IMG/VR virus record: IMGVR_UViG_3300034410_000187
Span: 1-28,999 of that record
Origin: a virus
Taxonomy: Duplodnaviria; Caudoviricetes
Reading direction: 5' to 3' (one strand)
Length of the DNA: 28,999 nt
The notes below the pieces were generated by a model. It saw only the letters and a program-made list of their open reading frames with translations, made no database searches and was not told the origin of the DNA. Both the position numbers and the translations under genes were made by a program. The stretch's first letter is position 1, and each line of letters starts with the position of its first letter. This document shows positions 1 through 28,337 of this stretch, one piece after another.

Positions 1-1412
1 TCACCGGTCTCGATACAACGATCGACTGGAAGAACACCGGGGACAACTCGTACGATGGTGAAAAATTAAAACTATTAGTTCACGATGAGTCGGGCAAATG
101 GGAAAGACCAGATAACATATTAAATAACTGGCGTGTAACAAAAACTACATTAAGGCTAGGTAGTAGAGTCATTGGAAAATGTATGATGGGATCAACATCA
201 AACGCATTAGATAAAGGTGGTGAAAACTTTAAAAAACTATACAATGATTCAGATGTTACCAAACGAAACCGCAATGGACAGACTAAGTCAGGATTATATT
301 CTTTGTTCATTCCTATGGAATGGAATTACGAAGGATTCATTGACAATTATGGAATGCCTGTATTCGAAGAGCCATCAGCAAATTGTGTTGGCCCACACGG
401 AGACGCTATCGAAGTTGGCGTCATCGAACATTGGGATAATGAGGTAGAAGGATTAAAAGGTGACCAGGATGCTTTAAATGAGTTCTACAGGCAGTTTCCA
501 CGTACAGAAGAGCACGCGTTTAGGGATGAAACTAAAAATAGTATATTTAATTTAGTTAAAATATACGAACAAATAGATTACAACGAAGATTTAAAAAGTA
601 CAGGCGTTGTAACAACGGGCAGTTTTAATTGGGAGCATGGAGTGAAGGACTCAAAAGTAATGTTTAGCCCAAACCCGAATGGAAGGTTTAAAGTTTCTTG
701 GGTTCCAAAAGTTGGTTTGCAAAATAAACAGGTAATTAAAAATGGTATAAGGTATCCCGCAAATGATCACATAGGCGCATTTGGCTGTGATAGTTACGAT
801 ATATCAGGAACCACCGATGGCAAAGGATCTAAAGGAGCATTACATGGGCTTACTACATTTAGTATGGAGGATGCGCCGTCAAATACGTTTTTTTTAGAAT
901 ATGTGGCAAGACCACAAACAGCTGAAATGTTTTTTGAAGATGTGCTTATGGCTTTAGTGTTCTACGGAATGCCTCTTCTTTGTGAAAACAATAAACCAAG
1001 ATTATTGTATTATCTAAAGCGTAGAGGATATAGAGGTTACTCTATGAATCGCCCTGATAAAACATATACAAAATTATCCGTTACAGAAAAAGAAATAGGC
1101 GGTATACCTAACTCTTCTGAGGATATAAAGCAAGCCCATGCAGCTGCTATTGAAACCTACATACAAAACCATGTTGGTATCACTAATGATGGACAATATG
1201 GTTCCATGTATTTTAGCCAAACTTTAAACGATTGGGCTAAGTTTGATATAAACAAAAGAACAAAATTTGATGCGGCTATTAGTTCAGGGTTAGCGATAAT
1301 GGCCTGTAATAGACATCTATACAGACCAAACCCCAAAGCACAAAAACCTAAGTTAAATATACATATTGCAAAATATAAAAACGCCGGTTCAATATCGGAA
1401 ATAATAAAATAA
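1..1412 (+). CDS. terL: Terminase large subunit, 5'-truncated by the window edge
   Basis: The frame is open from nt 3 (TGLDTTIDWKNTGDNSYDGEKLKLLVHDESGKW...), so the ATG at 183 is internal. It shows a Walker B-like LLVHDE (72-89), a motif III-like GSTSN, and RNase H-like nuclease motifs GAFGCDSYD, LCENN and FDAAISSGLA. It lies directly upstream of the portal. Confidence 0.93.
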   Translation, partial: TGLDTTIDWKNTGDNSYDGEKLKLLVHDESGKWERPDNILNNWRVTKTTLRLGSRVIGKCMMGSTSNALDKGGENFKKLYNDSDVTKRNRNGQTKSGLYSLFIPMEWNYEGFIDNYGMPVFEEPSANCVGPHGDAIEVGVIEHWDNEVEGLKGDQDALNEFYRQFPRTEEHAFRDETKNSIFNLVKIYEQIDYNEDLKSTGVVTTGSFNWEHGVKDSKVMFSPNPNGRFKVSWVPKVGLQNKQVIKNGIRYPANDHIGAFGCDSYDISGTTDGKGSKGALHGLTTFSMEDAPSNTFFLEYVARPQTAEMFFEDVLMALVFYGMPLLCENNKPRLLYYLKRRGYRGYSMNRPDKTYTKLSVTEKEIGGIPNSSEDIKQAHAAAIETYIQNHVGITNDGQYGSMYFSQTLNDWAKFDINKRTKFDAAISSGLAIMACNRHLYRPNPKAQKPKLNIHIAKYKNAGSISEIIK

Positions 1413-1418
1413 ATATAT

Positions 1419-3845
1419 ATGGCTGAGTCAGTTATAAATAGTTTTTTTCCAAGCCAAGTTGCTAGCGATGCTGAAAAGCTTTCGCCTGAATACGGTTTAA
1501 GAGTTGGTAGAGCGATTCAAGATGAATGGTTTAAATCCGATTCTGGCACTAACAGATATAAAAGTAATCAAAATACATTTCATAGATTAAGATTATATGC
1601 TAGAGGTGAACAGTCTGTACAAAAGTATAAAGATGAGTTATCTATTAATGGCGATTTATCATATTTAAATATAGATTGGAAGCCAGTACCAATTATACCT
1701 AAGTTTGTAGATATAGTGGTTAATGGCATATCCGAAAGAGCATTTGATATAAAAGCATATTCGCAAGATCCTTATGGAGTAGCAAAGCGTACAGAGTACT
1801 TAGCTAGTATAATTAGAGATATACAAACTAAAGAGTTAAACGATTTTGCTAAAGATAACTTTGGCGTTAACTTATACGAAAACCAACCCGAGACTCTACC
1901 AGAAACACAGGAAGAGTTAGACGTACATATGCAGCTTACTTATAAGCAGGCTGTAGAAATTGCGGAAGAGCAAGCTATAAATGTATTGCTTGAGGGTAAC
2001 CATTACGATTTAACAAAAAAACGTGTAGTATACGATTTAACCACCATAGGCATTGGAGCTGTTAAAAATAGGTTTACAAAGTCAGAAGGTGTGGTAATAG
2101 ATTATGTTGACCCTTCAAATTTAGTATGGTCTTATACGGACTCTCCGTTTTTTGATGATATTTACTATTGCGGCGAAGTAAGAGAAGTACATATTAATGA
2201 GCTTAAAAAACAATTTCCTGATTTAACAAATGAGGACTTAGAAAAAATATCTAAAACAGGTTACCAAAATAACGGCTTTTATGACAGGTCGTTGTCTAAT
2301 TATAACGAATCTGACTCTAACACTGTTCAAGTTTTGTATTTTAATTACAAGACATATATGAACGAAGTGTATAAAATTAAAGAAACCGCAACAGGAGCTT
2401 CTAAGGTATTAGTCAGAGATGATCAGTTTGATCCACCAGTTGAAGTATTAGAGCAACAGTTTGGTAAACTATCAAGATCACTTGAAGTATTATACGAGGG
2501 TGTTTTAATATTAGGCACTGATTATTTATTAAAATGGGAGCTAGCTAAAAACATGATGCGCCCAAAAAGCGATAGTTCAAAAGTATTATTGAATTACAGT
2601 ATCAATGCACCCAGAATGTACAAAGGTAGGATCGAATCATTAGTAAGCCGCATTACAGGGTTTGCGGATATGATACAACTAACGCATCTAAAGTTACAGC
2701 AACTGCTATCAAGAATGGTGCCTGATGGTGTTTACCTTGATGCTGATGGATTGGCTGAAATAGATTTGGGTAATGGTACAAATTATAATCCGCAAGAAGC
2801 GTTAAACATGTTTTTCCAGACAGGTTCTGTAATCGGAAGATCATTTACGCAGGATGGCGATATGAACCCAGGCAAAGTGCCTATACAAGAAATTACAAGC
2901 GGTAGCGGCGGCAACAAGTTAGGAGCGTTAATCAATACGTATAACTATTATTTGCAAATGATCCGTGATGTAACGGGATTAAACGAGGCAAGAGATGGCA
3001 GCATGCCTGACGGTAAAGCTTTGGTTGGTATACAAAAGATAGCAGCGGCAAATTCAAATACCGCAACGAGGCACATAATGGAAGCTGGATTATTTATAAC
3101 GGCTCACTTAGCAGAATGCTTGTCTCTTAGAATATCTGATATAATTGAGTATTCGCCAGCAAGAGAATCGTTTATACAAAAGATAGGGGCGCATAACGTA
3201 GCCACCCTTTCTGAAATGAATAATTTGCACTTATACGATTTTGGTATATTTTTAACACTTATGCCAGATGAGGAAGAAAAGCAAATGCTTGAAAACAATA
3301 TACAAACCGCATTGTCAGCTGGTTTAATAGACTTGGATGATGCTATTGACATACGCCAAGTGCAAAATTTAAAGTTAGCAAATCAGCTACTAAAAATTAA
3401 GCGTAAGAAAAAACAAGAGCGTGATCAAGCTATTCAACAGCAAAATATTCAAGCGCAAGCACAAGCGAACGCACAGGCTCAACAAGTCGCGGCGCAGGCC
3501 GAGGTACAAAAGCAAGCCGCTATAACACAGCAAAAAGCGCAACTTAAACAATTAGAAGGGCAACTTGATTTACAAAAACTAGAAGCGGAAGTCGAAGCTA
3601 AGAAAGCTTTAATGGCGCAGGAGTTTGATTATAACATGCAGCTTAAAAATATGGAGACTGAGCTTTATAAGCAACGCGAAAGCAAAAAAGAAGATCGCAA
3701 AGATGATCGTTCAAAAATGGAAGCATCGCAGCAAAGCGAATTAATTGAGCAAAGAAAAAACAATACACCACCAAAAAACTTCGAATCCGGCGGAAACGAT
3801 ATAATTGGCGGAGGGTTTGACTTAGGAACCTTTGAACCTAAGTAA
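1419..3845 (+). CDS. Portal protein (808 aa) with Gln/Ala/Lys-rich coiled-coil C-terminal barrel
   Basis: Follows terL. Its size and motifs (IDWKPVPIIPKFVDIVVNG, IRDVTGLNEARDG) are like crAss-like portals. The long Q-rich helical C-terminus resembles a P22-type portal barrel. Confidence 0.88.
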   Translation: MAESVINSFFPSQVASDAEKLSPEYGLRVGRAIQDEWFKSDSGTNRYKSNQNTFHRLRLYARGEQSVQKYKDELSINGDLSYLNIDWKPVPIIPKFVDIVVNGISERAFDIKAYSQDPYGVAKRTEYLASIIRDIQTKELNDFAKDNFGVNLYENQPETLPETQEELDVHMQLTYKQAVEIAEEQAINVLLEGNHYDLTKKRVVYDLTTIGIGAVKNRFTKSEGVVIDYVDPSNLVWSYTDSPFFDDIYYCGEVREVHINELKKQFPDLTNEDLEKISKTGYQNNGFYDRSLSNYNESDSNTVQVLYFNYKTYMNEVYKIKETATGASKVLVRDDQFDPPVEVLEQQFGKLSRSLEVLYEGVLILGTDYLLKWELAKNMMRPKSDSSKVLLNYSINAPRMYKGRIESLVSRITGFADMIQLTHLKLQQLLSRMVPDGVYLDADGLAEIDLGNGTNYNPQEALNMFFQTGSVIGRSFTQDGDMNPGKVPIQEITSGSGGNKLGALINTYNYYLQMIRDVTGLNEARDGSMPDGKALVGIQKIAAANSNTATRHIMEAGLFITAHLAECLSLRISDIIEYSPARESFIQKIGAHNVATLSEMNNLHLYDFGIFLTLMPDEEEKQMLENNIQTALSAGLIDLDDAIDIRQVQNLKLANQLLKIKRKKKQERDQAIQQQNIQAQAQANAQAQQVAAQAEVQKQAAITQQKAQLKQLEGQLDLQKLEAEVEAKKALMAQEFDYNMQLKNMETELYKQRESKKEDRKDDRSKMEASQQSELIEQRKNNTPPKNFESGGNDIIGGGFDLGTFEPK

Positions 3846-3878
3846 TAATAGTAATGTATAATTATATAATATTTTATC

Positions 3879-5087
3879 ATGTCAGAAAACACAGAAGAAG
3901 TTCTAGAGGTGCAAGAAGAAACCCAAGAACAAACAACTCCTGAAAATGAGGTTGTTGAAGAAAAGCCAGATACCGGCGCATCAGTCGCAGATGATGGCAC
4001 TATTAAAATAGATTTAGGTAAACTTAATAAACCAAAAGAAGATGCCGTTCAAGAGCAAAGCGCAGATGACAGCGATGCTGTTGTCGGAGAATCCGAAGAC
4101 ACGCCAGACGGCGAAGAAGTGGTTGAAGAAATACGGGACGCCGAAGAAGAAGAGGTAAGCGCATTAGAAGAAGTAATTGAGGAAGAAGTTGTTGAACAAG
4201 TAGAGGAGCTCACTGAGCAAGTTGAACAAGCTATAGTCGAGGCGGATGCTGGCGTTGATTTGCCAGAAAATATTCAAAAAGTTGTTGACTTTATGAACGA
4301 CACAGGCGGAAGCCTTGAGGATTACGTAAAGTTAAACACAGATTATTCTAAATTAAGTGAAGCGCAGTTAATACGTGAGTATTACGAAACAACAAAACCG
4401 CATTTAGATAAAGAAGATATTGAAGTTTTAATGGAAGACTTCTCGTACGACGAAGAGCTTGATGAACCTAAAGATATTAGAAAAGCAAAAATAGCTTTTA
4501 AAGAGGAAGCGGCGAAAGCTAAAAAACATCTTGAAAAGTTAAAAGCTAATTATTACGAAAACATTAAAGCTGGATCTAACTTAACTGAAGACCAGCAACA
4601 AGCTGTTGATTTTTTCAATCGCTATAATAAAGAAAACGAGGAAGTGACAAAAGCCGCTGCCTCGCAAAAAGAAATATTTTTAAATAAAACTAGTAACGTT
4701 TTTAATAAGGATTTCAAAGGTTTTGATTATTCTGTTGGAGACAAAAAGTATAGGTTTAAAATTAAAAATACTGAAGACGTAAAGGCAACCCAAAGCGATA
4801 TTAATAACTTCGTCAAAAAGTTTTTGAACGATAAAAATGAAATGTCAGATGCTAAGGGTTATCATAAATCTTTATTTACAGCTATGAATGCTGATTCCAT
4901 TGCTAACCACTTTTACGAGCAAGGCAAGGCCGACGCTATAAAAGACAGCATGGCTCGAACCAAAAATGTTGATATGGACCCGAGAAGGGGACACGAAAAA
5001 GTAACAACACAAAATGGTTGGACTGTACGCGCGGTACCAAGTGATGCAAATAGCACGAGTAGTTTTAAAATTAAAAAACGAAAATAA
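3879..5087 (+). CDS. Acidic scaffolding-like/capsid assembly protein (402 aa)
   Basis: Lies between portal and major capsid genes. It has a very Glu/Asp-rich, likely disordered N-terminus, a helical middle and a basic C-terminal tail (FKIKKRK). Confidence 0.65.
   Translation: MSENTEEVLEVQEETQEQTTPENEVVEEKPDTGASVADDGTIKIDLGKLNKPKEDAVQEQSADDSDAVVGESEDTPDGEEVVEEIRDAEEEEVSALEEVIEEEVVEQVEELTEQVEQAIVEADAGVDLPENIQKVVDFMNDTGGSLEDYVKLNTDYSKLSEAQLIREYYETTKPHLDKEDIEVLMEDFSYDEELDEPKDIRKAKIAFKEEAAKAKKHLEKLKANYYENIKAGSNLTEDQQQAVDFFNRYNKENEEVTKAAASQKEIFLNKTSNVFNKDFKGFDYSVGDKKYRFKIKNTEDVKATQSDINNFVKKFLNDKNEMSDAKGYHKSLFTAMNADSIANHFYEQGKADAIKDSMARTKNVDMDPRRGHEKVTTQNGWTVRAVPSDANSTSSFKIKKRK
4042..4158 (+). CDS. 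Putative overprinted small basic protein (38 aa, MPFKSKAQMTAMLLSENPKTRQTAKKWLKKYGTPKKKR) in the +1 frame of the scaffold gene
   Basis: ATG at 4042 and TAA at 4156-4158. It has an A-rich leader (CTTAATAAACCAAAAGAAG) and locally raised GC. The MPFKSKAQ...AKKW pattern resembles a small phage protein family I recall, not verified by search. Confidence 0.6.
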   Translation: MPFKSKAQMTAMLLSENPKTRQTAKKWLKKYGTPKKKR

Positions 5088-5108: not shown

Positions 5109-6521
5109 ATGGCTGGATCATTTACTGGGAGCGAATTAGCTCTCCAACATTTAACTCCACGACCAGTTAAGGGATTGTTTGGCGACAATTACCTAGCAGT
5201 CGGGGACCTAGACTTTACGCAACAATTTTTGCCTGAAGTTTACGAAAAAGAAGTAGAACGATATGGAAATCGTACTATCTCTGGATTCCTACGTATGGTA
5301 GGTGCAGAAATGCCTATGGCATCTGACGTAATCACTTGGTCTGAACAAGGACGTTTACACATTGCTTATGACGACGCGGCTGTAGCATCGACTACTTCGC
5401 TAACATTGCCTGCTGGCCACTTGATTGGCAAAGGAATGACTATTGTTGTTTCTAAAGGCTTTGATACTCAAAAAGCATATGTACAAGACGTAGTTGGTCA
5501 AACTGTAACTGTAGATACTTACGGCGAATTAGCAGGTCTTACAATGACAGGCAGCGACGTAAAAGTATTTGTATACGGTTCTGAGTACGCTAAAGGAACA
5601 GAAAATGCTGGTAACTCAGTTGACGCTTCTTTCACAACTTTCAACAACAAACCAATTATTCTTAGAGATAAGTATAATGTAAATGGTTCTGATGTTGCTC
5701 AAATTGGTTGGGTAGAAGTAACTACTGAAGCTGGAACTTCTGGATACCTATGGTACCTAAAGTCTGAGCACGAAGCTCGTATCCGTTTCGAAGATCAACT
5801 TGAAATGGCTATGGTTGAAGCAGAAAAATCATTAAACGCTGATGGATCTACAAGAAATATTACAGCTGCTGCTGGATTTGGTGGTGGTACTAATATTACT
5901 GGTTCTGAAGGTTTATTTGCTGCACTAGAAGAAAGAGGATTAGTTTATGCTGACTCTGCATTCGGTGGCGCTGATGGGCTTGCTGACTTTGATACTATTT
6001 TAGCTGAACTAGATAAGCAAGGAGCTATTGAAGAGAACATGATGTTCTTAGACCGTGGCACTTCCTTGGCTATCGATAACATGCTAGCTGCTCAAAACTC
6101 TTACGGAGCTAACGGAACATCTTACGGTGTATTCGACAATTCAGAAGATATGGCACTAAACCTTGGTTTCTCAGGATTCCGAAGAGGTTCTTACGATTTC
6201 TACAAAACTGACTGGAAATATCTAAACGATTCTACAACTCGTGGATTAGTCGCAGATGTTGAAGGTGTGATTGTTCCTGCTGGAACTTCTACAGTTTACG
6301 ATCAGCAACTCGGAAAGAACATCTCTCGACCATTCTTACACATCCGCTACAGAGCTTCTGAAGCTGATGACCGTAGAATGAAGTCTTGGGTGACTGGATC
6401 AGTAGGAGGTAACTATACTTCTGACGCTGACGAAATGAACGTACACTTCTTGTCAGAAAGAGCGTTGTGTGTTCAAGCTGCTAATAACTTCGTATTATTG
6501 AAGGCTATTGCACCAGCATAG
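5109..6521 (+). CDS. Major capsid protein (470 aa, HK97 fold expected)
   Basis: Position after the scaffold gene, typical size, strongly biased codon usage suggesting high expression, motifs QQFLPEVYEKEVERYGNR and LNLGFSGFRRGSYDFYK, and a terminator downstream. Confidence 0.9.
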   Translation: MAGSFTGSELALQHLTPRPVKGLFGDNYLAVGDLDFTQQFLPEVYEKEVERYGNRTISGFLRMVGAEMPMASDVITWSEQGRLHIAYDDAAVASTTSLTLPAGHLIGKGMTIVVSKGFDTQKAYVQDVVGQTVTVDTYGELAGLTMTGSDVKVFVYGSEYAKGTENAGNSVDASFTTFNNKPIILRDKYNVNGSDVAQIGWVEVTTEAGTSGYLWYLKSEHEARIRFEDQLEMAMVEAEKSLNADGSTRNITAAAGFGGGTNITGSEGLFAALEERGLVYADSAFGGADGLADFDTILAELDKQGAIEENMMFLDRGTSLAIDNMLAAQNSYGANGTSYGVFDNSEDMALNLGFSGFRRGSYDFYKTDWKYLNDSTTRGLVADVEGVIVPAGTSTVYDQQLGKNISRPFLHIRYRASEADDRRMKSWVTGSVGGNYTSDADEMNVHFLSERALCVQAANNFVLLKAIAPA

Positions 6522-18665: not shown

Positions 18666-21600
18666 ATGCCAGATTATAAATTACTTAATGGCGGAATAGT
18701 CAACACTGATGATTACTCGCAAGAGCAAATGGATAATTTTCTTAATGATTTTCCAGGGGCAACACTTGTAGAAGAGGATTTTCAAAACGGAGCTGCGGGG
18801 ACGGATGCGCCTGCAACTCCAGTAATGCCAAGTCGAGCATCCATAATTGCGGGTGTTCAACCCGAAGCTACGGAATTACCATCGGAAGATACTTCTTCGG
18901 AATTACAAAAAGGTGACCAAGGTTATTATAGACAAGAGCGTAAAAAAGGTAGAAGCGCTGAATCTATACGTAGAGAATATTACAGAGAAGGATCCCCGGG
19001 CGCTATAGCTTACGATGCAAAAATGCAGAAGCAAGTTGATACAGCACAAGGTTTACTCACGGATATAGACCCTGAGCTAGAAGCTGAGGCTAAAAAAATA
19101 GCAGAAGATAATCAAGAGTTAGTACTCGGTATAACAGCTGAAACAGAAAAAAATAATATACTAGCAAAAGAGTTTAAGCTAGGTGAACTTAAGTCTAGAA
19201 ACCATAGAGATGGTTATGCTAGCTATGGCGGCGTGGCTACATCTGTAGCTAGGTTTAAGTCAGATGAAGAATATGAAGATTATCTTAAAAAGCAGTTAGG
19301 TAATAAATACGATAGGTATAAAGAATTACAAAGCAGCGCCGAAGAGTTTGGTATGACTCTAAACAAAGATAATATAGCTAACTTTGCTACATTAGATGAT
19401 GCCAGCACCGATACCCAAGCACAGGTTATATATGAGGCACAAAAATCTGCTTCAGAAATACCATTAAGAAATGTTGACGATGATGCCAAAACCTTAGCGG
19501 AATTTTACACTGGATCAGAAGCTGTACAAAAAAAGAAAAAAGATGCCTATGCTAATGCTGTTGCGCAAGCAAAAAAAGACCAGGACGCATACTTTAAACT
19601 TACAGGTAAAAGTTTAGTTGAAAAACAAACTATTGACGGAGTTACGTATAATCCTATTCCGGATATAGAATCAACATTAGATGAAGTTGAAAAACAAAAT
19701 CAAATAGAAATTGGGCGTAGACTAGAGGCTTTTGAAAAAAATAAAGTTAATGTAAATAGCGACATTGAATCACTTGAGGCTTTACAAAAGCAAATGCAAG
19801 AGTATTCTACTATTAATTACAATGCACCCGATCAGCTAGCTATAAGGAATAATTTAATTAAGCAGGAAGAGGATCTTTTAAATAAAATAAATGCTCAAAT
19901 AATTATACTGAATACTGAGTCTACGGCATTGACAAACGAAATTGAGCAAGCTGGAGCCGCAGGAATAAGCGATGCTGCTTTACTTAAGTCATATAAAACT
20001 ATGGATAAGTTGGCTAATGTTTGGGATAGTGCATTTGTAGGCAGCGCTAAAATGCTAGGTGGAGGTATTGCAAGAGTGTTTGGAGATGAAGAAACTTATA
20101 ACGCAGCGATAGACTACAATCAAAAGCTACAGGAATATAGCGAAAAGTATTTACCAGGCAATTTAACAATGGATGATGACAGCACCGCTTGGCAGTATGC
20201 TGGCGACATGCTTGTTAATAATTCTCCCTCCATAGCTGTTGCATTGGCCACAGCCGGATACGGAAGTGTAGCTGCCGCGGGGGGTGGTGCAGTTGCAAGG
20301 GCAGCGGCAACAAGAGTAGCCTCAAGGTATGCTACAGGCGCATTTTTTACAATGGAAGCGGGTGGACAATTGTCTAATCTTGAAATAGGGCAGCGTAATG
20401 CCCCTAAAGTAATTGCCGGGTTAAAAGAGGAGCTTAAAGCAATGGAAGAATCAGGCGCTGCGGTAGCTGATATAAATAAAATTAAAAGCCAAATACAAGA
20501 CCAAGAAGATCTGTTAAGCTTAGGTATGTTCCAAAAAGGCCTTAATAGTGTGGTATATGGTGGTATTGCGGCTGGAGCAGAAAGAATAGGTACATTGGGC
20601 TTTATAAGTAATTTTCAAAAGTATTCAAGGTCTGTTGGCGGAAATCAATTTAGAAAACTATTCGGGGATGCCGTAGGCTCAAGAGTTGCTAAAAATGTAG
20701 GTTTGCTTAATGCAACAGGTATTGGAGCAGGTATTGAGTTTTTAGAAGAGGGCATGACGCTTATAGGTCAAAACGCGTCTGACAATATTATATTCCAGCC
20801 TACTAATGCTAAGAGCCTTATAGAAGGATTAGATGGTGAATTCTTTAGGAACACTATGGTAACGTCTTTAGCTATATCAGGGCCTAGCGTTAGTCAAAAC
20901 ATATATAGTCAAGTAGCAGATGCTGTTAAGACTAGGAAGCAAAGCCGCAGGGAAGGAGAAATAAGAGACGAATTATTTGGTATTCAAGCGGAGTTAGAAA
21001 AATTAGATGGACGAACTGCTGAAGCTAGAGCATTAAAAGTTGAAAGAGATCGTCTTATTACTGAAGCGGGCATAGAGAATACTGATGTCATGCTTAACCT
21101 TAAAGATCTTACCGGCAGTGAAATTGAAACTGTATTTGAAAACCATGCTGAAATACGTAGGTTAAAACTTGAGGCACGGGATTTAGATGTTACAGATTTA
21201 AATAAAAAAGAATTTGATAGATTAAACGCTAAAGCACAAGAGTTATTTAATGCTAATCAAAAAATGCTTAGCAGGGGCGAAACTAATATAGAAAAGTTCG
21301 CTAAAAACACAGCAAACCCAGTTGAAGCTGAAGTTAACGCTAGAACTTATAATACTTATAAATATATAGCTGAAAACAATCCAGGTATAAATAGTATAAT
21401 AATAAAAGACAAGGCAGAAGCTTTGGCTTATGCAGACCAGGCTTTTAAAGACGATGAAGCTGGTAAAAAACAATTTTTAGACAACTACGGTAAATCAAAC
21501 GCTTCGTTTGAACAAAACGGCGATCAAATTATTTATGAAGAAGTTGTTTTAAATCAAATGTCACAGGGCGGTATAAATGCTCGAATAGCTGCGGTATCGC

Positions 21601-24600
21601 CTTTGCATGAGATAGGACATCAACAGACTGTTGCGGCTGGTTTAATAAAGAATGATAAGTTGGCGGTTGATTCTGCTAATGAGCTTGTACAAAACATATT
21701 ACAAGACGTACAGTCTAGGTTTGAGCAAGGTAAAATTACGCAAGAAGAGATGGATGTTTTTAACCAGCGTATGTCTTTTTATAAAGAGTTAGGAAAAGGA
21801 AAGTATACTGAAACTAACGGTGTTGATGCCGATGAGCTTATACAGCTTGTAGGAGACTTTACAGCAATAGGTATTTTGCCTAAAAGTAGTTACGGTAATT
21901 TGTTTGGAGCAAAAACATTTATTAATAATTTGTTGCAAAAATTTAATGGTGATATGGCGCCGTTATTTAAAATTAATAGCCCCAACGATGTTTACGCTTT
22001 TGTTGCTAATTTTCAAAACAAAGCTGCTGGTTTTCAAATAAAGAAAGGTATAGCTGGTAGCGGAATAACCAAACAGCAAATAAGCTCTGCTGCGGCAAAA
22101 AGTAACGCAAGAGTTAATCTTATAACAAAAGAACAACTAGCTGGGCCTAGAGCGCAAGCATTGTTATTTGAAGAAATTACCAACATGGTTGCCGCTCAAA
22201 TAGCCGGCAGATATACATTGCCACCTCAAGCGTTACAAGATTTTACAGCTGAAGTTGTTGGAAGAATATACTTAGCTAAAGAAAATACAAAGTGGGATGG
22301 TAGAGGCCAATTAAGTGGTTTTCTCGGCGGAAGAATTAGTTTGCGTATAGCCGACGTTGTTAGGGCTGAATATAAACTACAGCCAACCGAAAGACAATTT
22401 TTAGGTACGGTAGACAATTTACAACCTGAAGATCAAAAAGATTTGGCTGTACCAGAGCAAGCTCCGGTTGCACAAGAAAAACCTAAATACAGAAATCTTA
22501 CACAAACAAAAATACTGCCAGCGGAGCAGGCTAAAGCCGTAGAGCAAAAAATAGTATCTATAGCTAGAGTATTAAAAAGTAGATTAGATGCACCATTGGG
22601 GCCTAACGCATCTGTAACGCCTATTATCAATGAACTAAAGCGTGAGCTTGGCAAAGCAATCGATATTGAGTTTAAAAAGATGTTAGGTAAAAAGAAAGGC
22701 GATGAGCTTAAGAAAAATGTACTTAGGTATAAGAAAGCTATACTCGAAAACATGACTACCACATGGTTGATGCAGGCTATGCCATTTGCAATACAGAAAT
22801 CTGTTGGTGGCACCTATAAAGTTGACGGGGAAGGTAAAAGAGTTAAGGATTCTAATGGCGATTTTATATTTATACCTAAATACACTAGCGAATGGCAAGG
22901 CAAAACAATAGATAGAGCAAAGACATCTACTAAGCAGCAAGGTAAAACATCAGGCCCTGAAATAGTAAGGCGTTTGCCAAATGCAGCAAACAAAATTACC
23001 GACGAACAATTCCTTAGTTATATGTTTAAAGACGGTGACGTTATACGTGGTCGTAAAGAATCTTTATCTAAGGCATTAGCAGAAGAGTATGGTTTTGATG
23101 TTATAAACGATGCCTTAAAGAATCCCGATAGCCCTATAAGCCAAGCTTTTGAAAACAATCAAGAGATGCTTGGTATGGCTATAGCAGATAACTTCGTTGA
23201 AGAAGTAGCAAAGCAAAGTGAACGTGGTCTTGTTAAAAGAAGTGCTATTGTAAATACCCAAACAATATTTAGAGATGCGCTAGCATTAGAAATAGAAGGG
23301 GACTTGAATGGTTCATTAGCGCTATTAGAAACATTGTCAGCTGAAGATAGAGCAGCATATGAGGATATTACTGCTAATATAAAAGTTGATACCGCTAGAT
23401 ATAAGCAATCTATTAAGAAGTGGAAAGATGCACCAGAAAATGTGCAGCCATTTATTGATCAGTATTTTGAAAATAATTCAGCTCGCGACAACAAGCAAGC
23501 AATGAAGGAATACTATCAATTTAGTACAGCCATGATAGACGCTCTACCAAATGCGCTAGTAAAAGCTTTGGGAGCAGATTTCTTTGGTGCTCATTATAGA
23601 TATTTAAATCCTAAAGAAGCAAAGTCTTTGGGAGCTAAGATAAGAGCGAAAATAGATGCTTTACCTAATACAAGCGAAGACATAGGATTTAATCCTGAGG
23701 ACATGCGCTTAATCCAAGCTGGCTCAGGCTTAGTTGGTCAAATAACAACAAATATACTAAACAAAAAGTTTGAATCCGCGCAGGCTAAGGTTGATGCGTT
23801 TTTGGAAAAGTACGGGGAAGAGGTTGATGCTTTAAATATTGCAAACAAAAAAGCTATTGAAATTGTTGTATCTACAGCGTTTGATATTGCTATAGCTAAA
23901 CCACAGCAAGCTGTTGGATTCTTAAGAATGCTAGAATCTACCACAAACATAGGTAAGTCCCTTAGATCATTGACAGGTATTAGTGATATTCAAATGACCG
24001 CTGAATCACAAGCTGTTTACATAAATACCAAAACTGGGCAAGGTTACAGTAACACTTTAAATGCTTCGCAAAAAGCAAAAGTAGAGACTGGAGAAATTGC
24101 ACTTAATGAAAACCACCCTAACTATAAGGAGGCTAAAAAGTTTATAGAAGATGGTTCAAAGCAAACCCTTCCGCAATTATTGCGAATTAAAGGTGAGCAT
24201 GCCACCCCTTCATCTAACTTTAATGTTTCTGTTGCTAAAGAGTATTTAACTATGCTTGGGATTGCTTTGCAAAATCCAGGTGGTGTGCAACAAGCTAAAG
24301 ATGCTTTAATTGCAAAGATTAATGAATTAACCGTAGAATTTAATCAACAATTAAATACTAAAGTATTATCTGATTTGCAAGACGCTAAGCTAGGGTCAAC
24401 CAGCGATATTGGCGATTTAAGATTATTAGCTATACCTTTGGAAAGTCAAAATGCTTTTTACGATATAAAAGGATTACAAACAATTGGTAGAGTACAAACT
24501 TTGTTAAACACAATGTTCAGCGCTAAAAATGTCGCAGAGCGTGCTAAAATAGCTACAGAACAAAAGGCTATAAACAACGCTAGAAAGCAATCATACGCTG

Positions 24601-27491
24601 CTAACCCTAAGGGAATTAGCGTATATGACTTTGACGATACACTTGCATTTAGTAAAAGTGAGGTTATAGTTAAAATGCCTCCAAATAAAGAAATACTTGA
24701 TATTGCTGCAAGAAGATTGTTTGCAAATCAGTTTAAAGATCTACCAGGTTATTTAAGAAAATTTGAAACTCTTACAAAAGAAGAGCAAGCGAGAGTATTA
24801 AAAGATGTACCACGTACAACTAAAAAAATAACACCCGCTGAGTTTGCAAAACAGGGAGACCAACTTGCTAAGTCCGGTGCTGAGTTTGATTTTAGCGAAT
24901 TTAATAAAGTTGTTAAAGGTACACCAGGGCCATTAGCACCAAGGCTTAAAAAGGCAATAGAAAAGTTTGGTAATAAAAACATATTTGTATTAACAGCTAG
25001 ACCACAAGAATCGGCGGTTGCTATACACGCATTTTTAAAAGGTCTAGGTTTAGAGATACCACTTGAGAATATAACTGGACTAGCTAATGGTGCTCCAGCT
25101 GCGAAAGCCGCGTGGATGGTAGGTAAAGTTTCAGAAGGTTATAATGACTTCTATTTCGTAGATGATCATATGGGCAACGTTAAAGCTGTTAAGGATATTC
25201 TTAATACATTTGATGTTAAAGGCAAAGTGCAGCAGGCAAGGGTTAAAAGAAGCGCTGCGCTAGGTAAGGACCTTAACGATATGATAGAGCGTAATAAAGG
25301 CATTGCCTCGGAAGCTGTTTACTCTAAAATTAGGGCTAGAAAAGAAGGGGCTAAAAAAGGTAGGTTTAAAGTTTTCTTACCGTATGGCGCAGAAGACTTT
25401 AGAGGGCTAACGTCATATACATTAGCTGGCAAAGGCAAGCAGGGAGAAGCTGACCAAAAATTCTTTGAGGATAATTTAGTTGTGCCGTACATGAGAGGCA
25501 TATCCGCTATGGAAAAAGCTAGACGTGCGCTTAAGAATGATTTTGCAACATTGTTAAAAGCGTTGCCTGGAATGAAAAAACGTTTAGGTAAACAAATTGG
25601 CGACACAGATTATACTGTTGACCAAGCTGTACGTGTTTATTTATGGACGCAGCAAGGGCAGGAAGTTCCAGGTATATCTAAAAGAGATCAAAAGAAATTA
25701 AATAGTCTAGTAGCCAAAGATCCAATGTTAACATCATTTGCCCAAGGCTTGCAAGCTATATCAAAACAAGATCAATGGCCCGCTCCAAGTGATCATTGGG
25801 TAGCAGGTTCTGTTTTAAAAGATATTAATGAAATTAACGAAGTGCTTACAAGAGGGGAGTACTTGCAGGAGTTTAACGATAACGTTGATATTATATTTGA
25901 CGAAAACAATTTAACCAAACTAGAAGCCGCATACGGTACGCGTTATGTAAACGCTTTAAAGAACTCAATAGCTCGAATGAAGTCTGGTCGTAACAGACCG
26001 GCGCAGCCAGGGGCTTATGAACAACAATGGTTAAACTGGGTTAACAACTCTGTAGGTACTATAATGTTCTTTAACCGTAGATCAGCAGCAATGCAGATGT
26101 TATCATTTGCTAACTTTGTAAACTGGAGTGATAACAATCCGCTAAAAGCTGGGATTGCATTTGCTAATCAGCCAGCTTACTGGAGCGCGTGGTCAAAAAT
26201 ATTTAACTCCGACAAACTTAAAGAACGTCGCGGTGGTTTAAAATCTGATGTACAAGAACAAGAGATCGCTAACCAAGCTAAAAATAGTAAAGACAAAGCG
26301 AGCGCTGTAATTGCATACTTATTAAAAATAGGATTTACACCTACACAAATTGCGGATAGCTTTGCTATTGCAACAGGGGGAGCTACGTTCTTAATTAACA
26401 GAACAAAAACTTATAAGAAAGAAGGTTTATCACAAGCGGAAGCGGAAGCAAAAGCATTTGAAGACTTTAGCGCTATATCCGATGAGACGCAGCAATCAGG
26501 TGATCCTATGTTGGTATCTGCACAACAGTCGAGCCATTTAGGACGTCTTATATTGGCTTTCCAAAACACGCCGATGCAATACACTAGATTGATGAAAAAA
26601 GCTGGCCAGGATCTTATAAACGGCCGTGGGGATGCTAAGACTAATATTAGCAAGATAGCTTATTACGGGTTTATACAAAACCTTATATTCAGCGCGCTGC
26701 AAAATTCATTATTTGCATTAATACCAGGATTTGATGATGAAGAAGAAGACGATGAGCAATACGAAAAAATCATTAATACAAAGACTGAAAGAATTGTTAA
26801 TTCTATGGTGGACACTATTCTTAGAGGATCTGGATTAACCGGTGCGGTAATATCTACATTAAAGAATACTATTAATAGATATTATAAAGAAGAGAAGAAA
26901 GGTTATAATGCTGATCACGCTTATACGCTATTAGAACTAGCGAACGTATCACCGCCTATAGGTTCTAAGATGAGGAAAGTATACGGTGCAATTCAAACTA
27001 AGAAGTTTGACAAAGATGTAATGGCTGCGCAGGGTTGGGATGTTACATTAGACGGTAGATTTAATATTTCTCCTAATTACGAAATATTAGCATCACTTTC
27101 ATCCGCTGGATTAAACTTGCCGTTAGACAGAGCGTTAGCCGAAATAGACGGTATATCTGAAGCTCTTGATGCTAGGAATACATCTTATCAAAGATTAGCT
27201 TTGGGATTAGGTTGGAGAACATGGGATGTTAAAGCTAGAAAAGAGGAAGAAGAATGGGCTAAGCTTGTTGGTAAAGCAAATCGTAAAGCAGAAGGCAAAA
27301 AGAAAGCTGCTGAAACAAGAAGGCTAAACAAACTGAAAAAAATAGAAGAGCTTGCGGCAATGACTCCTGATGAAAAATCACGATACCTATTAGCAGAAAA
27401 AGCAAAGCGAAAAGCAGCAGCTAAAAAAGCGGCAGCCACAAGAAGACAAAACAAAAGAGTAAAAGATTCAATACTAAGTTTAAAAAATTAA
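18666..27491 (+). CDS. Giant multidomain virion cargo/ejection (polyvalent-type) protein (2941 aa)
   Basis: Contains coiled coils, Gly/Ala hydrophobic segments (about 20030-20890), HEIGH zincin motif (21606-21620), a sigma region 2-like segment (22161-22376), HAD motifs DFDDT/LTAR/VDD (24627-25166) and a basic C-terminal tail. Confidence 0.75.
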   Translation: MPDYKLLNGGIVNTDDYSQEQMDNFLNDFPGATLVEEDFQNGAAGTDAPATPVMPSRASIIAGVQPEATELPSEDTSSELQKGDQGYYRQERKKGRSAESIRREYYREGSPGAIAYDAKMQKQVDTAQGLLTDIDPELEAEAKKIAEDNQELVLGITAETEKNNILAKEFKLGELKSRNHRDGYASYGGVATSVARFKSDEEYEDYLKKQLGNKYDRYKELQSSAEEFGMTLNKDNIANFATLDDASTDTQAQVIYEAQKSASEIPLRNVDDDAKTLAEFYTGSEAVQKKKKDAYANAVAQAKKDQDAYFKLTGKSLVEKQTIDGVTYNPIPDIESTLDEVEKQNQIEIGRRLEAFEKNKVNVNSDIESLEALQKQMQEYSTINYNAPDQLAIRNNLIKQEEDLLNKINAQIIILNTESTALTNEIEQAGAAGISDAALLKSYKTMDKLANVWDSAFVGSAKMLGGGIARVFGDEETYNAAIDYNQKLQEYSEKYLPGNLTMDDDSTAWQYAGDMLVNNSPSIAVALATAGYGSVAAAGGGAVARAAATRVASRYATGAFFTMEAGGQLSNLEIGQRNAPKVIAGLKEELKAMEESGAAVADINKIKSQIQDQEDLLSLGMFQKGLNSVVYGGIAAGAERIGTLGFISNFQKYSRSVGGNQFRKLFGDAVGSRVAKNVGLLNATGIGAGIEFLEEGMTLIGQNASDNIIFQPTNAKSLIEGLDGEFFRNTMVTSLAISGPSVSQNIYSQVADAVKTRKQSRREGEIRDELFGIQAELEKLDGRTAEARALKVERDRLITEAGIENTDVMLNLKDLTGSEIETVFENHAEIRRLKLEARDLDVTDLNKKEFDRLNAKAQELFNANQKMLSRGETNIEKFAKNTANPVEAEVNARTYNTYKYIAENNPGINSIIIKDKAEALAYADQAFKDDEAGKKQFLDNYGKSNASFEQNGDQIIYEEVVLNQMSQGGINARIAAVSPLHEIGHQQTVAAGLIKNDKLAVDSANELVQNILQDVQSRFEQGKITQEEMDVFNQRMSFYKELGKGKYTETNGVDADELIQLVGDFTAIGILPKSSYGNLFGAKTFINNLLQKFNGDMAPLFKINSPNDVYAFVANFQNKAAGFQIKKGIAGSGITKQQISSAAAKSNARVNLITKEQLAGPRAQALLFEEITNMVAAQIAGRYTLPPQALQDFTAEVVGRIYLAKENTKWDGRGQLSGFLGGRISLRIADVVRAEYKLQPTERQFLGTVDNLQPEDQKDLAVPEQAPVAQEKPKYRNLTQTKILPAEQAKAVEQKIVSIARVLKSRLDAPLGPNASVTPIINELKRELGKAIDIEFKKMLGKKKGDELKKNVLRYKKAILENMTTTWLMQAMPFAIQKSVGGTYKVDGEGKRVKDSNGDFIFIPKYTSEWQGKTIDRAKTSTKQQGKTSGPEIVRRLPNAANKITDEQFLSYMFKDGDVIRGRKESLSKALAEEYGFDVINDALKNPDSPISQAFENNQEMLGMAIADNFVEEVAKQSERGLVKRSAIVNTQTIFRDALALEIEGDLNGSLALLETLSAEDRAAYEDITANIKVDTARYKQSIKKWKDAPENVQPFIDQYFENNSARDNKQAMKEYYQFSTAMIDALPNALVKALGADFFGAHYRYLNPKEAKSLGAKIRAKIDALPNTSEDIGFNPEDMRLIQAGSGLVGQITTNILNKKFESAQAKVDAFLEKYGEEVDALNIANKKAIEIVVSTAFDIAIAKPQQAVGFLRMLESTTNIGKSLRSLTGISDIQMTAESQAVYINTKTGQGYSNTLNASQKAKVETGEIALNENHPNYKEAKKFIEDGSKQTLPQLLRIKGEHATPSSNFNVSVAKEYLTMLGIALQNPGGVQQAKDALIAKINELTVEFNQQLNTKVLSDLQDAKLGSTSDIGDLRLLAIPLESQNAFYDIKGLQTIGRVQTLLNTMFSAKNVAERAKIATEQKAINNARKQSYAANPKGISVYDFDDTLAFSKSEVIVKMPPNKEILDIAARRLFANQFKDLPGYLRKFETLTKEEQARVLKDVPRTTKKITPAEFAKQGDQLAKSGAEFDFSEFNKVVKGTPGPLAPRLKKAIEKFGNKNIFVLTARPQESAVAIHAFLKGLGLEIPLENITGLANGAPAAKAAWMVGKVSEGYNDFYFVDDHMGNVKAVKDILNTFDVKGKVQQARVKRSAALGKDLNDMIERNKGIASEAVYSKIRARKEGAKKGRFKVFLPYGAEDFRGLTSYTLAGKGKQGEADQKFFEDNLVVPYMRGISAMEKARRALKNDFATLLKALPGMKKRLGKQIGDTDYTVDQAVRVYLWTQQGQEVPGISKRDQKKLNSLVAKDPMLTSFAQGLQAISKQDQWPAPSDHWVAGSVLKDINEINEVLTRGEYLQEFNDNVDIIFDENNLTKLEAAYGTRYVNALKNSIARMKSGRNRPAQPGAYEQQWLNWVNNSVGTIMFFNRRSAAMQMLSFANFVNWSDNNPLKAGIAFANQPAYWSAWSKIFNSDKLKERRGGLKSDVQEQEIANQAKNSKDKASAVIAYLLKIGFTPTQIADSFAIATGGATFLINRTKTYKKEGLSQAEAEAKAFEDFSAISDETQQSGDPMLVSAQQSSHLGRLILAFQNTPMQYTRLMKKAGQDLINGRGDAKTNISKIAYYGFIQNLIFSALQNSLFALIPGFDDEEEDDEQYEKIINTKTERIVNSMVDTILRGSGLTGAVISTLKNTINRYYKEEKKGYNADHAYTLLELANVSPPIGSKMRKVYGAIQTKKFDKDVMAAQGWDVTLDGRFNISPNYEILASLSSAGLNLPLDRALAEIDGISEALDARNTSYQRLALGLGWRTWDVKARKEEEEWAKLVGKANRKAEGKKKAAETRRLNKLKKIEELAAMTPDEKSRYLLAEKAKRKAAAKKAAATRRQNKRVKDSILSLKN
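18776..18842 (+). promoter_or_regulatory. Predicted -1 programmed ribosomal frameshift signal (slippery heptamer plus H-type pseudoknot)
   Basis: In-frame G_GAT_TTT (18776-18782), spacer CAAAAC, stem 1 18789-18799/18810-18820 (11 positions, one C-A mismatch, one G-U), and stem 2 GGATGC 18803-18808/GCATCC 18837-18842. Confidence 0.65.
18782..18916 (+). CDS. -1 frame extension (44 aa, SKRSCGDGCACNSSNAKSSIHNCGCSTRSYGITIGRYFFGITKR) of a predicted 83-aa transframe protein starting at 18666
   Basis: Open -1 frame from the slip site to TGA at 18914-18916. It is bounded upstream by TGA at 18746-18748 and has no ATG of its own. Confidence 0.5.
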   Translation, partial: SKRSCGDGCACNSSNAKSSIHNCGCSTRSYGITIGRYFFGITKR

Positions 27492-27492
27492 T

Positions 27493-28098
27493 ATGGAACC
27501 ATTCAACATTAAAATACAAAACACAACGCAAGGCGCAAAAAAACCTAATAACCAAGAGGTAACGCAGAATGCTGATGGTTCAGGTGGGCCTATTAGTATT
27601 GCTAAGCAAACTAATTATAAATTTCAATCAAAACCCAAAAATAAAAAACAATATAAACAAAGATTAAAACAGTACAAAGAAGATCCTTATCAAAAAGCAG
27701 TTGATAAGTTTCCACAATTTAATCAAGCTACGGATACTATTATAAGCACTACAAGTGGTGGATATAATATCAATAAAGGAATTAATTCTTTTAAAGCGCA
27801 AAATGCGGCTACTAATTTATATGATGGCAACGGATCTAATAATTACACAATAAAAAACATGAAAGGACCTGAAGACTCCAAGTCATATCATGAATCAGAC
27901 GGCAGGACAACCACCTACGATTTGTATAATAAAGAAAATTTAAAAGATAGTGTTGAATCTATGGTAAAGAAAAAAGACGCTTGTTATACTAAAGTAAAAA
28001 GCAGATATAAGAAGTGGCCATCTGCATACGCAAGCGGTGCATTAGTCAAATGTAGAAAAGTTGGTGCTGCTAACTGGGGAAATAAAAGTAAGAAGTAA
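27493..28098 (+). CDS. Hypothetical protein (201 aa) with C-terminal basic KKDACY...WPSAYASGALVKCRK module
   Basis: Starts 1 nt after the giant gene's stop. The body is Asn/Lys/Gln-rich. The C-terminal 45 aa resemble a module I recall from marine phage proteins. Confidence 0.6.
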   Translation: MEPFNIKIQNTTQGAKKPNNQEVTQNADGSGGPISIAKQTNYKFQSKPKNKKQYKQRLKQYKEDPYQKAVDKFPQFNQATDTIISTTSGGYNINKGINSFKAQNAATNLYDGNGSNNYTIKNMKGPEDSKSYHESDGRTTTYDLYNKENLKDSVESMVKKKDACYTKVKSRYKKWPSAYASGALVKCRKVGAANWGNKSKK

Positions 28099-28337
28099 TG
28101 GCTTTTAAAATGAATTCGCCATTTAAAAACTTAAACCGATGGTTTAAAGAAGAATGGAAAACGCCAAGCGGCGAAGAAGATTATAGCGAAGGCGAAAACA
28201 CCTTTAGACCAACTAAAAGAATATCCGAAGACACACCATCAACCTGGAGCGAGTTAACCGCCGCAGAAAAAGCTGCTGCCCAAAAAGAAAAAAATACCAA
28301 AGGCAGGGTAAGTAGGTATAAGAAAAAGAAAAAATGA
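28098..28337 (+). CDS. Small basic hypothetical protein (79 aa, LNRWFKEEW...FRPTKRIS..TP; possibly DUF5872-like)
   Basis: TAATG-coupled to the upstream gene and ATGA-coupled to the downstream gene. Family name is from recall only. Confidence 0.6.
   Translation: MAFKMNSPFKNLNRWFKEEWKTPSGEEDYSEGENTFRPTKRISEDTPSTWSELTAAEKAAAQKEKNTKGRVSRYKKKKK

Follow-up and report, generated by a model that had tools for sequence, protein, structure and literature searches.

In phage phiX174, gene E is nested in the scaffold gene D, and in phage lambda, Rz1 is nested in Rz; both inner genes are read on the same strand in the +1 frame, from starts of their own. Spanins occur in embedded as well as in separate forms. 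Fully nested genes are thought to be rare in tailed phages, where they are usually fixed pairs that resulted from overprinting. Small, basic proteins that are late or head-linked are represented by the internal proteins IPI-III of T4 and by J of phiX174. Closest to the gene described here is the family phrog_1375, which includes gp10 of mycobacteriophage Patience and gp9 of Barnyard. It has in common with our peptide a small size, a basic character and an F-K-S-K-x-Q ... A-K-K-W core, from which our peptide departs by a 4-residue insertion. The annotated members of phrog_1375 are free-standing, the family description makes no mention of nesting and the family function is unassigned. Embedded frames in Patience are reported in the accessible part of Pope 2014 (PMC4324244).

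The present locus resembles phiX174 E and lambda Rz1 in its same-strand +1 nesting with an own start, and the host of E is a scaffolding gene. In contrast to E and Rz1, the nested cassette lacks membrane or lysis features, its host segment is a dispensable linker, it nests in unrelated host genes and, of the two frames, the nested one seems to be older. The likeness to T4 IPI-III, phiX174 J and the basic virion proteins of Patience, a cohort found in particles, is limited to a small, basic and late or head-linked nature; none of them matches the peptide in sequence or fold, and no targeting sequence was identified.

The source record, of a marine phage, is a 29-kb fragment, ~52% complete. The window, the whole stretch of 28,999 nucleotides that was analysed, has the gene order terminase, portal, host gene (the gene enclosing the nested one), capsid-like gene, more virion genes, giant gene, two basic-domain genes and endolysin. 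The features concerned are the following:

3..1412, + strand: large subunit of terminase, truncated at the window end (phrog_6681)
1419..3845, + strand: portal protein (phrog_6547, E 5e-157)
3879..5087, + strand: host gene, 402 aa, putative scaffold from its position between portal and capsid
4029..4041, + strand: likely internal initiation region without Shine-Dalgarno, weakly structured, with A at -3, -6, -11, -12 and -13
4041..4157, + strand: DNA of the nested gene read in the host frame, an acidic segment (residues 55-93), predicted disordered linker
4042..4158, + strand: nested gene of 38 codons for a basic peptide of the MPFKS family, linked to phrog_1375; predicted two-helix hairpin
5109..6521, + strand: likely major capsid protein (phrog_13704; a weak Crass_capsid match, E 2e-4, is below cut-off)
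18666..27491, + strand: giant gene, 2941 aa, without a copy of the peptide
27493..28337, + strand: pair of genes encoding small basic domains (phrog_727; phrog_14910/DUF5872)

With its counterpart in Elemovirus, the capsid-like protein shares 45% identity, and with that of Cellulophaga phage phi38:1 it shares 38%, which identifies the phage as an Elemovirus-related podophage of Bacteroidota. For the host gene, PHROGs, Pfam and the PDB gave neither a family nor a fold match (Foldseek, none at E 0.001). The gene is a putative capsid scaffold on the basis of gene order and of its helical, acidic composition. Its predicted model is helical past residue 100, with a pLDDT below 50 at residues 52-100, a region that spans the overlap.

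The translation of the originally predicted 38-aa ORF at 4042-4158 on the + strand was reproduced exactly (38 aa and a stop), as was its +1 placement in 3879-5087, at an offset of 163 (54 codons + 1). A complete ORF is thus contained in an intact host ORF in a different frame. The peptide is small and strongly basic, with 12 K+R and a single D+E, and the host residues 55-93 under it include 18 D+E. Host codons were said to end more often in C or G over the ORF, and host GC3 is indeed 0.41 in the overlap, compared with 0.20 upstream and 0.30 downstream. Assembly error is excluded for the DNA of the ORF, because single contigs from two runs reproduce the sequence: in X2 a contig spans 3800-5056 with 1 difference and in X12 one spans 3800-4186 with 2 differences, all outside the ORF. 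Of the sequence words, just 5-7% are present in RNA runs. By its length alone, the ORF is within chance, as 9 ATG-started +1 ORFs of at least 38 codons occur in the 27.5 kb of window genes; its conservation, selection and family match exceed chance. A second +1 ORF in the scaffold gene of the window (21 codons, host codon 22) was rejected, being present in the window locus (L001) only. In the terminase gene, the +1 frame has a 78-codon open stretch at 211-447, open in 9 of 14 hits in relatives, which is probably a shadow of the conserved terminase.

A scan of IMG/VR gave at least 554 scaffold relatives, and the best 80 of the 554, some of them near-duplicates, were read in all frames. The original prediction made conservation of the +1 ATG and open frame a check: a same-site ORF is found in 46 of these 80 homologues, always beginning ATG-CCN, and encodes 40 distinct peptides. 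An HMM scan free of any start requirement detected zero copies in the remaining 34, whose linkers lack the cassette segment. Indels between cassettes preserve both frames. On a tree of 112 scaffolds (unrooted, without outgroup, with L027 mislabelled as a non-carrier, and used for patchiness only), the presence of the cassette switches 16 times or more and the peptide subtypes are dispersed, a pattern suggestive of repeated loss and exchange. Five near-complete genomes picked for carrying the cassette have exactly one copy each. No copy was found in two complete relatives, three partial relatives and phi38:1; as complete relatives do without it, the cassette is accessory.

Selection on the two frames was compared in 29 distinct cassettes of the window subtype (34 before duplicate removal). 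Diversity in the overlap is 0.28, 0.17 and 0.12 at host codon positions 1, 2 and 3 (position 3, 0.118), while position 3 of the host reaches 0.40-0.53 in five other regions, acidic flanks among them. Across cassettes, the identity is 81% for the peptide versus 62% for the host frame. With the 10 codons fixed by the search pattern removed, 112 changes silent in the peptide only were observed, against 38.8 expected. Transitions comprise 89 silent in the peptide versus 23 silent in the host, where about equal numbers are expected (nominal p 9e-10; substitutions were counted along 28 spanning-tree edges that are not fully independent). Among copies nested in giant genes, all 9 giant-giant pairs preserve the frame of the peptide better than that of the host. 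Of the two frames, that of the peptide is under the stronger purifying selection. This answers the earlier caveat that GAA-rich DNA automatically yields Lys in the +1 frame, since composition alone is insufficient for a pattern of 89 versus 23.

The same data bear on the idea that the +1 frame is untranslated and is conserved as a DNA or RNA signal, or as a motif of the host protein such as a cleavage site. A weak start score and a conserved host motif, D-A-x-x-E-Q, would fit it, but the variation is highest at the wobble position of the peptide, the cassette indels retain both frames and the homologous free genes have a closed -1 frame; we consider it very improbable. That the nested gene at 4042-4158 is real is, in our judgement, highly probable.

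The nested peptide is likely translated from its own ATG. According to the part of Baez 2019 (PMC6847099) available, A residues at -3, -6, -12 and -13 are positive determinants of initiation in Flavobacterium; the A at -11 was added here. The leader had been described as A-rich, like those of the real genes of the window. This held for the individual positions, since A is present at all five, a combination found in 18 of the 37 distinct cassette starts, in 35 of the 194 real starts and in 11 of the 4048 internal +1 ATGs. It did not hold for the full matrix, trained on the 194 real starts, in which the window ATG scores far below real starts (3rd percentile) and at the 93.5th percentile of internal ATGs. 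Three higher-GC copies in giant genes have, by eye, a GGAG- or GGGG-like run ahead of the ATG.

Alternatively, a ribosomal frameshift or slippage during transcription could lead into the +1 frame, so that a short N-terminal part of the scaffold would carry a basic tail. Scaffold-like N-termini are indeed fused to the peptide in six database proteins (P0004, P0005, P0007-P0010), and runs of A lie upstream in some loci; the six fusions may, however, be assembly errors, and no common slippery site was seen. Free copies begin at the same Met, the ATG is invariant in 46 of 46 carriers, and upstream +1 stops come as near as one codon to it (L033). Because of these last two points, such a route is disfavoured and seems improbable to us.

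An exact 8-codon motif scan of IMG/VR, in which 120 loci were sampled out of an estimated ~1800, gave 118 classified loci, two loci from before being skipped. Scaffolds house 53 of the 118, giant genes 10 and truncated hosts 9; a further 38 are not nested, 5 are truncated and 3 are probable shadows. With the variant motif of the original prediction (120 loci sampled, an estimated ~2400 IMG/VR stretches), 73 were nested in scaffolds, 37 were not nested, 1 was nested elsewhere and 9 were truncated. Standalone homologues, as originally proposed, therefore do exist, making up 38 of the 118 and 37 of the 120 motif matches, and more than half of the sampled motif loci are nested. Three high-GC loci labelled 'nested_other' were counted as free-standing, their open -1 frame being a likely shadow; the -1 frame is open in 8 of 16 high-GC free copies and in 0 of 19 low-GC ones. 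Against an HMM of 39 free copies, the tail of the window peptide scores 28.3 bits, a value reached by 9 of 2000 tail shuffles. A shuffle test (at most 2 of 200) was passed by 49 of the 50 peptides nested in scaffolds and by all 10 nested in giant genes.

All 68 Flavobacterium records matched by tblastn are of the Elemovirus type. In the one Elemovirus record examined, the cassette lies in +1 within a 3694-aa structural gene and is unannotated. MW202828 likewise has the cassette in its giant gene and a scaffold gene without a copy. In Elemovirus, MW202828, G009 and G010, the giant gene that bears it ends the virion module. The nested copy is unlisted in both annotated records examined. Some of the giant hosts contain LPD23, ART-PolyVal, ParB or DarB-like domains, and in this they have domains in common with the phage large polyvalent proteins, which are not kin of the peptide; in the accessible portion of Iyer 2017 (PMC5512222), which treats these proteins, the term 'overlapping' is absent. 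The original prediction had tied the peptide to the scaffold, a view that has to be widened, as giant virion genes also house copies.

Free copies are present in the cultured phages FlowerPower (gp48), Barnyard (gp9), SketchMex, where it is unannotated between terminase genes, and C75C1. The Barnyard protein matches 479 actinophage records, and the hosts of the family span Bacteroidota and Actinomycetota. Matches by tblastn in Vibrio, Arthrobacter and Microbacterium (E 3-10) were treated as chance, and 5 loci from a GTDB scan, all in metagenome-assembled genomes, were excluded from host claims.

Of the 45 family members, 30 have a weak to moderate match to phrog_1375 (E up to 0.1). This profile is matched at 1e-31 by Patience gp10, a distant member, and at 3e-24 by Barnyard gp9, and Patience gp10 scores 19.2 bits on the family HMM, compared with at most 7.1 in 2000 shuffles. 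The window peptide (P0001, L001) has no direct match to the phrog_1375 profile; it is linked to that group through intermediate homologues. Searches of the window peptide against PHROGs and Pfam gave no match, and by sequence against the PDB only repeat artefacts. The nearest named Atlas cluster is DUF3008 (PF11450), with a score of 0.85 and the family on 37% of its members; none of the 45 members matches DUF3008 at E up to 0.1. In longer proteins, of 119-250 aa or more, the family forms an N-terminal domain (L167, L169, L176, L228, L372, L402 and others). Searches of the accessible literature returned no account of the MPFKS family or its nesting; elemo phages are outside the coverage of PMC7077304.

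The copy in the giant gene of MW202828 and the scaffold copy L189 share 84% DNA identity over 99 bases despite lying in unrelated hosts, which indicates that the cassette has moved between host genes; the Elemovirus copy is 74% identical to L189. Nested copies have T at 2-4% of third positions, against 25% in low-GC free copies, and favour G there. The peptide frame is probably the older one and the acidic host segment the newer reading. The locus had been presented as a newly overprinted frame; an older frame inserted into the host gene is the probable history. Overprinting in the strict sense does not apply, because the family occurs widely and as free-standing genes, and because an indel accounts for the host segment. 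In the Elemovirus giant gene (L322), a truncated second cassette start is located at codon 1088, 132 codons upstream of the full copy.

In the proposed scheme, an ancestral free-standing late gene would have been inserted in frame into a disordered acidic linker. The linker would tolerate this because one base earlier the Lys codons AAG and AAA give Glu, and the host frame would stay open because the silent positions of the peptide are tuned for it. Translation of the nested gene would begin at its own ATG, on the late mRNA of the head module, and nesting would supply late co-expression at no cost in gene order. Its product, a 38-residue basic helical hairpin, would be packed into the head and bind nucleic acid. 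The predicted model of the peptide is such a hairpin, with helices at residues 6-13 and 18-31 (pLDDT 82.6); Foldseek found none at E 0.001 for it in the PDB and viral sets.

Nested hosts are virion-module genes throughout. A terminase, portal or head gene lies at most three genes away in 18 of 30 free copies, by our own count and without a background rate, and 12 of the 30 have no head gene nearby. The Colbert copy (cluster B mycobacteriophage) is located at ~60 kb among unannotated neighbours, with no head gene within 3 kb on either side. Several free copies adjoin small basic domains of the kinds encoded at 27493-28337. In the accessible part of the Patience study (PMC4324244), gp10 is listed as a virion protein by mass spectrometry, with stringent spectra numbering 1 in particles and 4 early and 2 late in cells. 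The same part gives 30-257 spectra in particles for its neighbours gp11-14, 17, 18 and 111, whose net charge is +14 to +49; the K/R content of gp10 would limit its tryptic peptides. These observations support the originally suggested internal head or DNA-condensing role indirectly. That the nested gene encodes a packaged internal head protein binding nucleic acid is, in our view, about as likely as not.

The main rival is a real gene whose peptide acts late in the infected cell, on ribosomes, RNA or a host protein, instead of being cargo. The spectra of Patience gp10 available to us, commoner in cells than in particles, point this way, as do the copies outside head modules. Conserved residues F3, aromatic 11-13, A24 and W27 suggest a specific surface beyond charge, and hosts in both Bacteroidota and Actinomycetota would suit a conserved target. 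Since the nested hosts all belong to the virion module, 18 of 30 free copies lie near head genes and none of 45 members matches a ribosome or RNA factor in Pfam, such a cytoplasmic role is possible but rather unlikely.

A lysis accessory comparable to phiX174 E or lambda Rz1 would share their architecture only, and the FlowerPower copy does lie between a peptidase and a holin. Inspection, model and Pfam, however, revealed no hydrophobic membrane segment or lipoprotein signal, 12 of the 38 residues are basic and the endolysin of the window is 24 kb distant, which leaves this reading with hardly any probability. An S-P-F-K-M-like motif occurs at 28098-28337 of the window, in tails of nested peptides (L019, L022, L028 and others) and at the starts of neighbouring small proteins, and is possibly a shared targeting signal.

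Nested genes as such are already known; the new aspect is a widespread, unstudied family that moves between unrelated host genes. Members of a single family stand alone in some phages and, in others, lie within two or more unrelated host genes, with evidence of transfer between these; this suggests insertion into a tolerant linker as a second way in which gene overlaps arise. The acidic segment conserved in the host proteins is thereby explained too, as a by-product of reading the other frame. The cassette is present in a cultured phage-host pair, so that direct testing is possible. More tentatively, and with somewhat less than even confidence, the disordered acidic linkers of head proteins and giant injected proteins might be general landing sites, and mobile basic microproteins an unrecognised, protamine-like class of cargo. 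If so, a Lys-rich gene would equal an acidic spacer one base earlier, allowing in-frame hops from one virion gene to another, unrelated one and same-site swaps, and such genes would be missed by gene callers in thousands of aquatic phage contigs.

The scaffold linker can also house, in +1, a second small basic family, which follows or replaces the MPFKS cassette (L011:3311-3430, L031, L048, L073, L184, L197, L207, L232); this second family is absent from the window. It has a weak match to DUF7230 (best E 0.006, under cut-off) and none to ArfA. Two further groups of basic +1 ORFs in this linker (L158, L190, L192 and L193; L054, L056, L064, L075 and L076) gave no convincing Pfam match. G007 (L304-L307) has its virion-module genes in two sets, two giant genes among them, which reflects either duplication or a chimeric assembly. 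The +2 frame of the giant gene of the window contains, at 18749-18913, a Cys-rich segment of 55 codons from stop to stop, without an ATG, which ends in a conserved aromatic-Gly tail followed by the stop. Similar segments are found in six relatives (L291, L295, L297, L298, L301, L305) and in a second giant gene (L307); the segment could be a -1 frameshift product of the 5' end of the giant gene or a nested gene with a non-ATG start.
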